Assembly: GCA_034670305.1 (NCBI GenBank)
Contig: JAXMNT010000014.1
Span: 87,440-151,439 of the forward strand
Length of the DNA stretch: 64,000 nucleotides
Direction: 5' to 3'
DNA from: Deltaproteobacteria bacterium
Lineage (GTDB): Bacteria > Myxococcota_A > Polyangia > Polyangiales > Houyiibacteriaceae
A model generated the notes under the pieces. It saw only the letters and a list, made by a program, of their open reading frames with translations. It ran no database searches and was not told where the DNA came from. Below are positions 5,127 to 59,446 of the stretch, one piece after another; positions within the stretch are counted from its first letter, which is position 1, and the number at the start of each line of letters is the position of its first letter. Made by a program: the position numbers and the translations under genes.

Positions 5127-8100
5127 CTACCTAGGGACGCTCTGCGGACGGGCCGAGCCCCGAAGCCGCCGACGCCATCCCCACAGCCCTAGGAGCAGGA
5201 GCAGCGAAGCACTGCCCGCCGGGTGGCTTCCCCCAGCCGAACACGCGCCACCGCCGGCGTACCCGCCAGGGCCGGTGGGTGTGTCGTCGGTGGGATCGAG
5301 GTAGTTCGGGATCCCGTCCCCGTCGGAGTCCTCACGCCCCTCTTCGAGGTCGGTCAGCCCGTCGTTGTCGCTGTCGGTGTCGAGCCGGTTGGGAATGCCG
5401 TCGTCGTCCACATCGTCGTCGGGACCACCAGGCAGCGCGTCGCCGTCTTCGACTTCGGTCCGGGTCGGGATGCCGTCGCCGTCGTCGTCCGTGTCCAGAT
5501 GATCGGGCAGCCGGTCGCCGTCACTGTCGCGCGGCATGCCCGCGTCGAGTTCGTCGCGGGTGGGAATGGAGTCCCCGTCGTCGTCCGTGTCGAGGTAGTC
5601 GGGCATGCCGTCGCCGTCCGTGTCGGGACACGACACTTCAGGCGGACCGCCGCACTCCACGATGTCCGGCAGCCCGTCGCCGTCGCTGTCGACGGGACCG
5701 GAGTCGCTGTCGAGGTAGTCGGGGGTGCCGTCGCCATCCGAGTCGGGACAGCCGGATGCCGGATCCGAGCACTCCATCATGTCGGGCATCGTGTCCCCGT
5801 CGGAGTCGAGGTCGAGCCAGCTCGGCAGTCCGTCGTCGTCGGGATCGTCGTTGCCCAGCGCCATCGAGTCGTTGCGTTCGGTCAACGTCGGGATGCCGTC
5901 GTTGTCGTCGTCCGGATCGAGGTAGTCGAGCCGGCCGTCCTCGTCGGAGTCTCTGGGCGACGACGCGCCACCGGCACCGAGCTCGTCGATGGTCGGAATC
6001 GAGTCGCCGTCGTCGTCGGTGTCCAGGTGGTCCGGCGTGCCGTCACCGTCCGTGTCCTGGTCGCCCTCCGGTCGTTCCTCCCGGGTGGGGATCGAATCGC
6101 CGTCGTCGTCCGGGTCGAGGTAGTCCTCGGTGCCGTCGTCGTCGGTGTCGGGGCAGCCATCCGCTGGATCGCCGCCGCACTCCACCACGTCCGCGATTCC
6201 GTCACCGTCCGTGTCGACCACGACCGAGTCGGGGTCGAGGTAGTCCGGGATTCCGTCGTCGTCGAGGTCGAGGCGGCCTTCCACGAGGTCGCTCGCTCCG
6301 TCCCCGTCGCTGTCGGTGTCCAGGTAGGCCGGGATCCCGTCGTCGTCGGGGTCGCCGAACATGGCGACGTCCATGACCTCTTGCGCGGTGTCGATTCCGT
6401 CCGCGTCGTCGTCGGTGTCCCGCCAGTCCGCCGGTTCGGTCATGTCGCGGTTCGGAAGGGGCGCCATGACGCCGCCGTCGTCCGGATCGAACGCATCGTC
6501 GAGTCCGTCCATGTCGGTGTCGTCGCCCGAAGGCTCCCGATCGGCCACTCCATCGGCGTCCGCGTCGTGGCCTTCGATCGCATCGGGGACCGTGTCCCCG
6601 TCGGTGTCGAGGTCGAGGTAGTCCGGGCTGTCGTCGCCGTCGATGTCGAAGCACGCGCCGATCGCGCCGCACTCGATCGAGTCCACGATGCCGTCGTCGT
6701 CGGCGTCGATGTCGAGGTGGTCGCTGAAGCCGTCCGAGTCGAAGTCGGGCGGTGTCGGTGCCACGCCGCCATCGTCCAGGTCGTAGGCGTCGTCGAGTCC
6801 ATCCATGTCGGTGTCGATGCCGAGCGCCGGCGTGTCGGCCGCGCCGTCGCCGTCCAGGTCGTGCGCTTCGATCGCGGTCGGGATGATGTCGCCGTCGTCG
6901 TCCGCGTCGCGGTAGTCCGGGTCGCCGTCGCCGTCGGTGTCGACGTCGCTCTCGTCCGCAGTGAGCAGCCCGTCGCCATCGTCGTCGACGTCGCGCCAGT
7001 CGGGTCGGCCGTCCTCGTCGGTGTCTTCGCAGGCGGTGAAGCCGCTGCACTCGTCGATGGTCGGGATGCCGTCGCCGTCGTCGTCCGGATCCATGTAGTC
7101 CGGATCGCCGTCGCCATCCGTGTCCGGGCAACCGTCGGCCGGGTCGCCGCCGCACTCGATCGAGTCGGGGATGCCGTCCAGGTCGGTGTCGACGGGGCTC
7201 GAGTCCGGGTCCAGGTAGTCCGGGATGCCATCCATGTCGAGATCGACGGTGCCTTCGGTCCGGTCGGGCACTCCGTCGCCGTCGCTGTCGTCGTCGTACC
7301 AAGCGTCGATGTCGTCGTCGTCCGGCGTACCGAACTCGGCCTGGTCTTCGATCTCAGTCGCGGTCGGGATCGCGTCGCCGTCGTCGTCCGCGTCGCGGAA
7401 GTCCGGCCGAGTGTCCGTGTCGGAGTTGCGGCAGGGCTGCGAGGGACACTCTTCGGTGTCGGCGAGCGTGTCGTCGTCGCTGTCCAGATCCAGGTAGTCC
7501 GGCATGCCGTCCATGTCGGTGTCTTCACAACCGGCGGGCGTCGTGCATTCGACCGCGCTCGGGATGCCGTCGTCGTCGTCGTCGTCGTCGAGGTAGTCCG
7601 GGCCCGGGGTACCGTCGCTGTCGCCGAGCGGGAACTCGGTCCGCGTCGGGATGCCGTCACCGTCGTCGTCCGCGTCCAGGAAGTCGGGCTCCGGATCGCT
7701 GTCGTGGTTCGGCGGGACCGCGCCTGGGTCGTACGCGTCGTCGAGTCCGTCCGCGTTCAGATCGGTGCCGCTCGGAATGGTGTCCGGTTCGCCGTCGCCA
7801 TCGACGTCGTGGCCTTCGGTCGCGTCGGGAACCGAGTCGTTGTCGCTGTCGAGGTCGAGGTACGCCGGCATGCGATCCATGTCCGGGTCGGCCATGCCCT
7901 CGGTCTCGTCGGTCAGCCCGTCGCCGTCCGAGTCCAGGTCGAGGTAGCCCGGGTGTCCGTCCGCGTCGAAGTCACGACACATGGTGGGCATCGGACACTC
8001 TTCCGCGGTCGGGATGCCGTCGCCGTCGTCGTCGGTGTCTCGGTAGTCGGGTCGCGGCGCACCGCCGGCGTTCGGGATCGCGGCCATCATGCCGCCCGCG

Positions 8101-51794: not shown

Positions 51795-51962
51795 GCGAAG
51801 CCGAAGCCGAACCCGAAGCCGAAGCCGAAGCCGAACCCGAAGCCGAACCCGAAGCCGACTCCGAAGCCGAAGCCGACTCCGAAGCCGAAGCCGAACCCGA
51901 AGCCGAAGCCGAAGCCGAAGCCGAACCCGACTCCGAAGCCGAACCCGACTCCGACCCCGAAG
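51795..51962. repeat. Hexamer microsatellite (GCCGAA/CCCGAA/TCCGAA)n
   Basis: Tandem hexamers between convergent genes. Confidence 0.92.
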
Positions 51963-51987
51963 CTGACCGCTCGAGGCCGGCTGCCTG

Positions 51988-52774
51988 CTACTCGAGGTCG
52001 GGGAGGAGGCCTTTCCAGCGGCCGCGCGCGTAGTCTTTGAATCGGATGCGGGTGTCGTGGCGGTGGTCGGTGACGAGGCCGTCTTGCACGCGGATCGTGC
52101 GGATCTTGTCACCGCGCATGCCGCTGCCGACGAGGGCGCGGCGGGTGGCGTCTTCGGCCTTCTTGCGGCGGGTGGCGCGGGTGTCGCGCAGCCGGGCGAG
52201 TAGGGTCGAGAACGCGAGTTCGCGGTTGCGTTCGCGCGAGCGACCGCTGTCGATGCGGACGGATGTGCCGGTGGGCACGTGCACGACGCGGACGCCGGTC
52301 TCCGTCTTGTTGCGGTGTTGGCCGCCTGGGCCGGAGCCGCGGAAGGCACTCCACTGAAGATCGTGGAGATCGATGGGCGGCGCGCTGGACGAAGAACGGC
52401 CGAGCACCGCGACCGTCACCGTGGAGGTGTGGACGCGGCCGCGTTTTTCGTTCGGTGGAACACGCTGCCAGCGGTGGCCGCCGGACTCGAGAAGGAAGAG
52501 GGATGCGACCGCGCCCTTGACCTCAAAGCTCGCGAAGCCTTCGCGCGAGCCGATGAGTTCTACGTCGTCAAAGACGTCCGGTGCTGTCCGGGCGCATCGC
52601 AGTGCTGGCTGGGCGCATCGCAGTGCTGGCTGGGCGCATCGCAGTGCCACCCTGCGTGCGACGGAAGGTCTGCACACGCTTGAGGTAGATCGACAACTGG
52701 AGTTCCACGAGGCGTCGTGCGTCTTCGCCGCCTTCCCCCGCGCGGAGCTCGATCAGAACTGAACTCTGTTCCAT
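51988..52774 (-). CDS. RF1-derived class I peptide release factor paralogue lacking domain 1; join(52774..52571,52569..51988) via +1 frameshift, 261 aa
   Basis: GAGGAG SD + ATG 52774; frame 0 [14 protein letters not shown] ends at CTT TGA C; +1 frame has [49 protein letters not shown]. Confidence 0.85.
52567..52573 (-). other. prfB-type +1 programmed frameshift site CTT TGA C (putative)
   Basis: Minus strand GGA CGT CTT TGA CGA CGT A; heptamer terminates the upstream frame and joins the two RF halves. Confidence 0.75.
52590..52647. repeat. 21-bp tandem repeat (~3 copies) inside the RF gene
   Basis: GGGCGCATCGCAGTGCTGGCT repeated; encodes TAMRPAS. Confidence 0.9.
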
Positions 52775-52943
52775 CTTGAGGCTCCTCGAACACGCGCCCG
52801 GTACGGACGCGAACGCGCATCCTAAACACGATGCGCCCGACTTCAAGTCCGAGTGCCCAGTCCACCGAGGCCGTTAAGGAGAACAAGGCGCACACATCGT
52901 CGATGTGCCGCCTTGTTCCGAACGAGTGTGTCGAGTCAGGGTT

Positions 52944-56498: not shown

Positions 56499-56697
56499 GA
56501 GAGAGCCTCCGGGAGCGGTAAAGAGCAACCACCGTGCCGACCGAAAAGGAGAACGATCCCGCCCGTGCCAACACAGCAGTGGGACATCGATGTCGCGATC
56601 TTCGTTGGGTCGTGAATCACGGTACGCACCCACATAGACGCACCAGAGGCCCCAAAACTTTCATGCCATCGCGTCTGCGGGTGCGCTCCACCCCGTC

Positions 56698-56935
56698 GGG
56701 TTCGGCTTCGGCTTCGGCTTCGGCGTCGGCGTCGGCGTCGGCTTCGGCTTCGGCGTCGGCTTCGGCTTCGGCTTCGGCGTCGGCTTCGGCGTCGGCGTCG
56801 GCTTCGGCGTCGGCGTCGGCGTCGGATTCGGCTTCGGCGTCGGCTTCGGCGTCGGCGTCGGCTTCGGCGTCGGCTTCGGCGTCGGCTTCGGCTTCGGCGT
56901 CGGCTTCGGCGTCGGCTTCGGCTTCGGCGTCGGCG
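56698..56935. repeat. Long hexamer microsatellite (GGCTTC/GGCGTC)n, about 39 units
   Basis: Directly visible. Confidence 0.95.
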
Positions 56936-57967: not shown

Positions 57968-59392
57968 CTACATCCCTTCCAACACTTCCCGCCACGCGTT
58001 CAGTGCCACGTCGTCGTACAGCCACACCTGCACGTGGTTCAACCCCGCGCTGCCGATGAACGAGAAGGTTCGGATGGTCTCGAGCATCAACTTCGCGCCG
58101 AGCGCGTGCGGCACTTCCCCGATGCCGGTGCCGAGCGCAGGAAACGCGATGGACTTGGCGCCGCGGCGGCGCGCGCCGAGGAGCGACCGGATGACCGCGC
58201 GCTGAATGCAGATCGCGCCGTCGATCGCCGCGACCGCGTGGGCGACGTGTTTCGCCTTCAGCTTGCCCGCGGAAGACCACACCACCTCACCCATTGCGCA
58301 CGGTGCGAGCGCGATGACCTCGGACTCGATCTCCACCCCGCCGTGCCTCAGAAGCGACGCGGCGACGCCGAGGTCCATCGTCAACTGGGGGTTGGCGGCG
58401 TTGACCAGGACATCGGCCTCGGCGGTGGCGAGATCCCCGACGTGCAACGAGATGTGGATGCCGCCGACCTCGGCCTCGCCACTCTTGGTGTGGTGGGTGA
58501 AGGTCGGCAGCGGCTCTTCGATCTTGCTCAGCGTGCGCACCAGCTCGGTCGCATGCGCTGGCCGCTTCGACGGATCCTTTTGCAGCAGGCCCGCCATCGC
58601 ACTGAAGAGAAACGCGCGGGTGGGATCGGACTGCGGCAAGGTGACGTAGGGCTGCGTCGTGTGCGCGTAGAAGAGCGCGGTCGCGGTGTCGCCGCGAAAG
58701 GGCGCGGTGCCGGTCGCGAGCAGATGGGCGGTCGCGCCGAGTGCATAGAGGTCGCACTTCGCGGTCGGCTGGTCACCGGCCCAGATCTCGGGCGCGAGGA
58801 AGAGGGGCGTGCCGGCGATCGGTTCGTTCGAGCCGTCGATGCGGTTGCTGTCTCGGGCGATGCCGAAGTCTCCGAGCAACGCTTGGCCATCTCCGCACAG
58901 AAAGAGGTTCGCGGGTTTGATGTCGCGGTGGACGACGCCGGCGCGGTGGATCGCGGTCAACCCGCGCGCGACGTCGGATACGATCCGGGTGACCGCCGCG
59001 GTCGAGAGCAGTTCGGGTGAACGATCGACCAGCTCCTGCAGATCGACTCCGTCCACGTAGCGCTGCACCAGAAAGGGCACCCCGTTCTCGATGCCCGCGT
59101 CCACCACCCCGACCACATACGGAGAGTTGACCCGCGCCGCGAGCTCGGCTTCGCTGAAGATGGCTTCGGGCGAGGGCGCTTCGGCCAACTCCGTGGGGTC
59201 CATCACCTGCGCGGGAGTCGCGTCGGCGCCGAGTTTCGGTTCGGGCGGGCGTGGTCGGAAGAGCTTGAGGATGAGCGGCCGCCGAAGCACCGCGTGGCTC
59301 ACGAGATAGGCGACCCCCATGGCGCCGTGGGCCAGGATGCCGTGGACACGCAGTCCGTGAAACTCGGTCCCGCGGCGGAGTTCAAAACTCAT
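57968..59392 (-). CDS. Ser/Thr kinase fused to macro domain
   Basis: HRDIKPAN, GDFG, GTPLFLAPE; VGDL...DVLVNAAN, HVAHAV, FPALGTGIG. Confidence 0.92.
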   Translation of the reverse strand: MSFELRRGTEFHGLRVHGILAHGAMGVAYLVSHAVLRRPLILKLFRPRPPEPKLGADATPAQVMDPTELAEAPSPEAIFSEAELAARVNSPYVVGVVDAGIENGVPFLVQRYVDGVDLQELVDRSPELLSTAAVTRIVSDVARGLTAIHRAGVVHRDIKPANLFLCGDGQALLGDFGIARDSNRIDGSNEPIAGTPLFLAPEIWAGDQPTAKCDLYALGATAHLLATGTAPFRGDTATALFYAHTTQPYVTLPQSDPTRAFLFSAMAGLLQKDPSKRPAHATELVRTLSKIEEPLPTFTHHTKSGEAEVGGIHISLHVGDLATAEADVLVNAANPQLTMDLGVAASLLRHGGVEIESEVIALAPCAMGEVVWSSAGKLKAKHVAHAVAAIDGAICIQRAVIRSLLGARRRGAKSIAFPALGTGIGEVPHALGAKLMLETIRTFSFIGSAGLNHVQVWLYDDVALNAWREVLEGM

Positions 59393-59446
59393 GGCGAGAC
59401 CGTGGCCGTGCGCGCGGTGCACTTCAAGCGAGCATTCATGCGCTGG

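Follow-up and report, generated by a model that had tools for sequence, protein, structure and literature searches.

In the window, as the whole 64,000-nt stretch of DNA analysed here is called, a short release factor gene runs on the minus strand from 52774 to 51988. An ATG opens 68 codons that end at CTT TGA C, after which the +1 frame, beginning DDVELIG, continues to a TAG (Table 1). When TGAC is read as one step, a 261-aa protein with the Pfam PCRF and RF-1 domains is obtained. The coordinates assigned in the initial annotation to the Shine-Dalgarno (SD) sequence, the ATG, the 68 codons, CTT TGA C, the DDVELIG frame and GGQ all hold. A separate GTG start at 52677 in the +1 frame (229-aa frame) was rejected, because its product would be without the helix alpha5 and GG tip of the continuous members of the family. 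On the 261-aa product, NCBIfam prfA scored 174 bits (cut-off 400) and 166 bits (cut-off 423), prfB 103 bits (cut-off 370) and prfH 74 bits (cut-off 166.65); the ArfB model scored 30 bits (cut-off 100), and the PCRF domain is present, unlike in ArfB/YaeJ. The gene upstream of the short factor encodes an RRM protein. Across the window, no Rfam elements or tRNAs were found, and the sigma-70 promoter search gave no match.

Table 1. Features of the short-factor gene (positions in the 64,000-nt window)
Feature	Position	Strand	Remark
Shine-Dalgarno sequence of the start, GAGGAG	52782..52787	-	7 nt 5' of ATG
ATG start codon	52774-52772	-	
ORF1, 68 codons + TGA	52568..52774	-	RF domain 2 first beta-strand and helix alpha5, GG tip
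GG-tip segment of ORF1	52750-52721	-	domain 1 absent in front
63-nt in-frame insert	52581..52643	-	strain-specific; three 21-nt tandem repeat units
Internal SD-like slot, ACCGGA	52577..52582	-	weak in the window copy
Shift site CTT TGA C	52567..52573	-	predicted +1 ribosomal frameshift in competition with termination
Parts of the shift site	CTT 52573-52571, TGA 52570-52568, C 52567	-	
ORF2, +1 frame	51988..52569	-	remaining domains 2/4 and domain 3; RF1-like C-terminus
Stop-reading loop (predicted)	52423..52470	-	PPN at 52458-52450
Catalytic GGQ	52318..52326	-	invariant in 34/34 alignment rows
ORF2 stop TAG	51990-51988	-	

The tandem-repeat insert, which is absent from the initial annotation, supplies 21 of the 68 codons of ORF1. 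With the insert removed, ORF1 ends in TQGGTGRL, as in L278, the nearest relative; in the structure model of a relative, the insert site is the turn between helix 13-34 and strand 37-44. The 21-nt repeat family is dispersed in the window genome (26 blast places, most of them that family). Tandem repeats resembling GCCAGCACTGCGATTCCCGAA are found at 52581-52647 of the window, on contigs C34, C45, C41 and C56 of genome G000, and on others; one array of this dispersed repeat was inserted in frame into the short-factor gene. Long intergenic hexamer arrays of the CGAAGC/GCTTCG type are also present, at 51796-51963, adjoining the short-factor gene on its downstream side, and at about 56680-56900. A fusion of a Ser/Thr protein kinase and a Macro domain is encoded at 57968-59422 on the minus strand.

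A gene split in this manner may also reflect an assembly error, or the window copy may be a decaying pseudogene. Its weak internal SD, the 63-nt insert, a longish terminal branch (0.57) and the absence of the tRNA array that is present at its two nearest relatives would fit such an origin. However, contigs from runs X5 and X6 (study P2) and X8 (study P3) carry the gene at ~95% identity and a depth of 2-4.5, and span the shift site with zero indels or substitutions, X6 being borderline with ~30 letters on one side; this comparison used assembled contigs, not raw reads. X5 and X8 come from two other studies; runs X1-X4 may themselves have supplied this DNA and do not count as independent. The X5, X6 and X8 contigs skip 63 nt, with 52580 joined to 52644. 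Close relatives differ from the window copy at 27 places in ORF2; 25 of these are synonymous when read in the +1 frame and none in either of the other frames. In ORF1, two of three are synonymous. Both reading frames are under selection. Furthermore, the same site occurs in 111 further loci, and the insert keeps the frame and, according to the model, sits at a helix-strand turn. Assembly error and pseudogene were therefore rejected, on the intact site in the relatives' contigs and the synonymous +1-frame differences, and are considered extremely improbable; the 1-nt assembly error that the initial annotation had raised was not found.

Homologous loci were taken from phage, genome and metagenome collections (the best 80 each of 391, 213 and 586 matches), and the sample is biased to close relatives because the best-scoring loci were taken. 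The 273 loci included 77 duplicates, 48 loci of canonical RF1 and 15 that could not be used. The remaining 133 family loci, window included, are from large phages and Myxococcota; a +1 site is present in 112 of them and an in-frame stop in 10, and the other 11 are continuous. The prfB-type shift site proposed earlier for this gene is thus conserved; the expectation that homologues would keep CTT-TGA at the junction stands for most of the 112 shift loci (CTT in 110, TGA in 82) and fails for the continuous and in-frame-stop loci. The gate stop lies 31 codons 3' of the EIR motif in 109 of the 112 shift loci, is preceded by CTT in 110 (in the rest of these genes, 12.6% of Leu codons are CTT) and is directly followed by C in 88. 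In L218, the +1 site lies about ten codons later than in the remaining loci. Where the SD slot holds an Arg codon, this is AGG in 57 of 61 cases, compared with 9.6% elsewhere, and TAA is found at 4/111 gates versus 53/109 ends of the same genes, kin not being independent. The AGG bias and the avoidance of TAA indicate that the shift signal is selected as RNA.

The internal SD duplex has a median energy of -9.8 kcal/mol in the family and -2.1 kcal/mol in control windows; 78% of the family versus 17% of control windows fall below -5 kcal/mol. At -3.2 kcal/mol, the window copy is indeed reduced, as had been remarked of its ACCGGA, and 15% of the gates in the family are weaker than -3 kcal/mol. 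CGGAGG is the commonest form in the family; the nearest relatives of the window copy have ACGGGA and AAGGGA. With its weak SD, the window copy probably shifts inefficiently.

A Met within 10 aa of EIR was found in 126 of 133 family members versus 3 of 44 RF1, and the C-terminus of ORF2 is RF1-like, in agreement with the absence of domain 1 and the RF1-like C-terminus first described. The family appears to consist of ~225-aa, domain-1-less, RF1-derived factors, for which a +1 ribosomal frameshift is the predicted route to the full protein; the window gene is a chromosomal copy. Continuous members also made up 33 of the 120 best protein matches. Their existence indicates that the fused product is the natural protein and, at 11/133 loci and 33/120 matches, that gating is dispensable. 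The structure model of one continuous member is folded like RF domains 2-4 (pLDDT 85), with the gate at a helix-strand turn. In genome G464, three copies score as full-length with no internal stop; one of them, L308, is continuous.

A FastTree phylogeny was built on the post-gate part (166 rows, with 28 RF1 and 12 RF2 rows dropped and one PrfH included). All 131 short factors lie on one side of a branch (SH 99), and their clade is sister to RF1 (SH 98) and apart from RF2 and PrfH; FastTree tends to overstate support, and PrfH sits on a long branch in this tree. The family profile matched RF1 at 1e-68, RF2 at 1e-41 and PrfH at 1e-22. This indicates one clade of domain-1-less, RF1-derived factors, as was anticipated when the gene was first taken for a further class of factor. 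It differs from RF2 in that the SPF loop and domain 1 are missing and it falls outside the RF2 clade. A search for fused longer forms of the short factor found none at E<=1e-60, which is weak evidence.

Of 301 genomes sampled from the class, 34 have the gene, with 17/51 and 10/51 in two families; among near relatives of the window genome it occurs in 3 of 61, with the window genome counted and one canonical RF match excluded. The class sample gave 28 loci (26 shift, 1 continuous, 1 cut), which overlap the genomes of the 133-locus set. Archangium gephyra SDU49 and Nannocystaceae ST9 are cultured carriers. The Atlas gives automatic RF names only, and the nearest cluster is 49% viral. Six curated huge-phage records were examined, all of which carry the short-factor family. 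The distribution suggests that the gene is phage-derived and has partly settled in chromosomes.

The initial annotation proposed that synthesis of the factor senses UGA termination, possibly as a backup when RF2 is limiting. This proved too narrow. The gate stop in the 112 shift loci is TGA in 82, TAG in 26 and TAA in 4; the 26 shifting loci of the class sample all have CTT, with TGA in 17 and TAG in 9. Host prfB gates are TGA in 24/25 and 32/32 (two sets of genomes), and in five genomes the prfB gate is TGA and the short-factor gate is TAG. On 110 tree rows the gate codon changed 23 times (shuffled mean 25.7; 16 of 200 shuffles as low), so it is barely clustered on the tree. In one pair chosen post hoc, L018 (TGA) and L023 (TAG), 31/31 ORF1 codons are identical, and 6/92 fourfold sites differ. 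The stops of long ORFs in the window genome are TGA 1583, TAG 744 and TAA 135. One phage locus, L082 (6616-6692), has a TAG gate (TTT TAG C) and a nearby tRNA with anticodon CUA.

The ten in-frame stops are spread over three separate clades of the tree and include a syntenic TGA/TAG pair. Among the six curated huge phages, four have one or two in-frame TGA and one has the usual shift site. L341 (LR756511.1, 5906-5988) is a divergent member that apparently lies behind two tandem +1 sites in an N-terminal leader, the first being CTT TAA C and the second CTT TGA C. We infer that the in-frame stops and the double sites of L341 may be readthrough or shift gates. Recoded genomes were considered as another cause of the in-frame stops; this is unsupported for L099, L107, L165, L178, L257 and L339-L343, because adjacent genes have the same stop at their ends or the coverage under code-11 and code-4 is similar, a result that excludes the short contigs L177, L240, L264, L266 and L270. 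At several in-frame-stop loci, other genes on the same contig terminate at that codon. In L339, L340, L342 and L343, from AT-rich huge phages, one or two in-frame TGA lie at about 6000-6700 at varying Trp-like positions, and the genes flanking the short factor look standard-code.

The window genome (96% complete) also encodes a separate 356-aa RF1, RF3, an RF2 whose gene likewise has a CTT TGA C site, and a 151-aa RF-1-domain frame read as ArfB-like by size. The host RF2 (L001, G000:C4:93994-95013, minus strand) has the loop S[KR]FSGRRETSF, three residues shorter than SPF...RRHTSF; the same short S[KR]F loop, with the TGA frameshift gate kept, occurs in the RF2 of 10 other genomes of the host's family (L364-L373). 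It was considered whether the short factor compensates a degenerate host RF2. This was rejected: of 32 genomes, 11 have the S[KR]F loop, and the gene was matched in 3 of these and unmatched in 8; 13 carriers in other families have a normal SPF. Since the host RF2 is SKF yet TGA-gated, the loop can be a misleading guide to specificity.

On sequence grounds, the best reading, with a probability of roughly 0.5, is that the family is a broad-specificity release factor that may limit its own synthesis at any stop. The ribosome would halt at the gate stop while tRNA-Leu sits on CUU. Arrival of a release factor would free the dead ORF1 peptide; if termination is slow, the tRNA would re-pair to UUU, aided by the internal SD, and the full factor would be made, the +1 shift following the mechanics described for prfB (PMC12421855). 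The full factor would release at UGA, UAG and UAA, and thereby shut off its own synthesis at whichever gate stop is present. It may provide added termination capacity under heavy translation, with the feedback averting premature release at near-stop codons. RF2 variants of broadened specificity are reported to gain release at UGG (PMC7530605), a drawback that would select for feedback. Since UGA and UAG replace each other at the gate with the protein unchanged, feedback is most simply explained by a factor that reads both; regulation through the gate would make sense if the product is able to relieve the very stop that it senses. The recurrence of stop-dependent gates, as +1 sites, in-frame stops and tandem sites, was counted in favour of self-limitation. 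The fullest form of this proposal is a natural "omnipotent" bacterial-type factor: a minimal RF1 descendant that would act on UAA, UAG and UGA without RF3, spread by large phages, acquired by myxobacteria, and self-limited by its own stop through +1 frameshift, readthrough or double gates. We hold this form tentatively, as a possibility somewhat short of even odds.

The residues of the reading pocket may be consistent with such a factor. In RF1, stop position 1 is contacted by G116, E119 and T186, position 2 by T186 and H193, and position 3 by Q181 and T194 (PMC3974865); residue numbers here are those of Thermus RF1, counted from the 4v4r alignment. The family keeps G116 (133/133), Q181 (133/133), T194 (127/133) and P184 (129/133), has the GG tip in 133/133 loci, and carries T115E (131/133), E119D (132/133), A121K/R (131/133) and mostly W at V180 (107/133). 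Position 186 is T in 82 loci, N in 47 and S in 2. The PPN loop singled out in the initial annotation is thus present in the window copy and is no hallmark of the family; as a reason for UGA gating it was rejected, the gate codon having no association with PPN or PPT. In algal mtRF1a, T186N is reported to go with UGA use, a correlation, and N186 is paired with a Ser treated as needed (PMC6821328). T115E, E119D, A121K/R, V180W and T/N/S at position 186, all at the pocket for stop positions 1-2, may relax the choice of A versus G at stop position 2, and Q181 and T194 may preserve A/G reading at position 3. Domain 1 is not needed for release and is needed for RF3 (PMC1586002); without it, the factor may work independently of RF3. 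Several members have a shortened reading loop (L113, L109, L219, L338), for example HRWQEKSGGRMQTS and HRVQRTSNGRIHSS.

Some of the sequence evidence points away from broad specificity and toward an ordinary RF1 that reads UAA and UAG. Bacterial RF1 (prfA) is the closest relative by profile, tree and fold (TM 0.83 to 1rq0); its loop length is kept in the family, the PxT loop is found in 82/133, and the family profile is far nearer to RF1 than to RF2. With such specificity, the gate would be an attenuator or a sensor of host termination capacity, where a UGA gate would report host RF2 and a UAG gate RF1, with supply low and load-dependent. A plain attenuator would account just as well for the lability of the gate codon. 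The independence of PPN and PPT from the gate codon and the avoidance at the gate of TAA, which both host factors read, also favour ordinary RF1 specificity, as do the continuous forms. Against the self-limiting reading, the gate mix resembles the stop usage of the window genome, and the SD of the window copy is weak. However, about three quarters of the gates are UGA, which an RF1-specific factor could neither read nor relieve, so that its induction would not fix the signal of a UGA gate. Stop-dependent gates recur through two mechanisms and at several positions, and the near-fixed T115E, E119D and A121K/R are located at the reading pocket. The family also differs from RF1 in its missing domain 1, a shorter C-terminus, H or Q at H193, its stop gating, and an accessory, patchy occurrence beside a normal RF1. 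Ordinary RF1 specificity is therefore regarded as unlikely, though it deserves serious attention.

The factor might instead act in ribosome rescue in the manner of PrfH, with codon-independent release at an empty or damaged A site and feedback at any slow stop. PrfH/RFH is likewise a class I factor of similar size that is without domain 1 and sporadic in occurrence (PMC1586002; Tian et al. 2025, 10.1101/2025.01.09.632186); in the phylum, it is present in 2 of 201 genomes. The basic EKRGR loop of the family, its indifference to the gate codon, and the tRNA or tmRNA genes found within 5 kb in 38 of 60 phage loci would agree with rescue; such genes also accompany both of the nearest bacterial relatives. 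In contrast to PrfH, which has GP and SXY, the family has a GG tip and a PxT-type loop and retains the RF1 codon contacts G116, Q181 and T194; it is stop-gated, scores well below the cut-off of the PrfH model, and does not group with the one PrfH in the tree. The RtcB partner is missing: among 146 same-strand neighbours scanned (239 listed), there was no RtcB and no recurring partner gene, only one RNA ligase and one TROVE. A rescue function is thus considered improbable, and the broad-specificity, self-limiting factor remains the preferred reading.

The control element resembles the prfB frameshift in its SD-like element, 3-nt spacer, CUU, stop and usually C, and the common form of the family cassette, CGGAGG-N3-CTTTGAC, is the same as the prfB cassettes of the same phylum. 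Unlike prfB, where the gate is near the start of domain 1, the family has its gate in an RF1-derived gene after helix alpha5; gates may be TAG (26/112), some clades have in-frame stops, and in others the gate is absent. The family is controlled like prfB and built like RF1 and PrfH, and is a member of none of them. Stop-dependent frameshift and readthrough expression of a viral release factor is also described for the eRF1 of Mimivirus and Megavirus (Jeudy et al. 2012, PMC3521657). However, that protein has the eukaryotic/archaeal fold and the short factor is bacterial-type, and the likeness is therefore convergent.

Among studies of huge and recoded phages, RF1 and RF2 are listed with no short form, gate or family status in the text available from Al-Shayeb 2020 (PMC7162821) and Borges 2021 (10.1101/2021.08.26.457843); the word "frameshift" is absent from the main texts as available, supplements being outside this scope. 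Neither "phage" nor "frameshift" occurs in the accessible part of Burroughs and Aravind 2019 (PMC6514570). Within the literature searched, which did not extend to subscription papers and supplements, the short-factor family is undescribed. Some huge-phage "RF1" calls probably belong to it. Databases wrongly list the shifted genes as N-truncated "RF1", the probable reason that the family was overlooked.

In sum, the family extends what is reported on release-factor control in bacteria. As far as the accessible text of the sources goes, none of 8,164 prfB gates was TAG and prfA had no programmed shift (Prince et al. 2025, PMC12421855), and a UAG/RF1 counterpart and in-frame readthrough gates were unknown in bacteria (Atkins et al. 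2016, PMC5009743). Published surveys therefore contain no UAG gate in prfB, no programmed RF1 shift and no readthrough-gated bacterial release factor; the short-factor family bears sequence signatures of all three. It also points to translation control of a so far hidden kind in large phages. If the factor does read all three stops, the old question of why bacteria keep two codon-specific factors, and eukaryotes and archaea one, would become directly testable.
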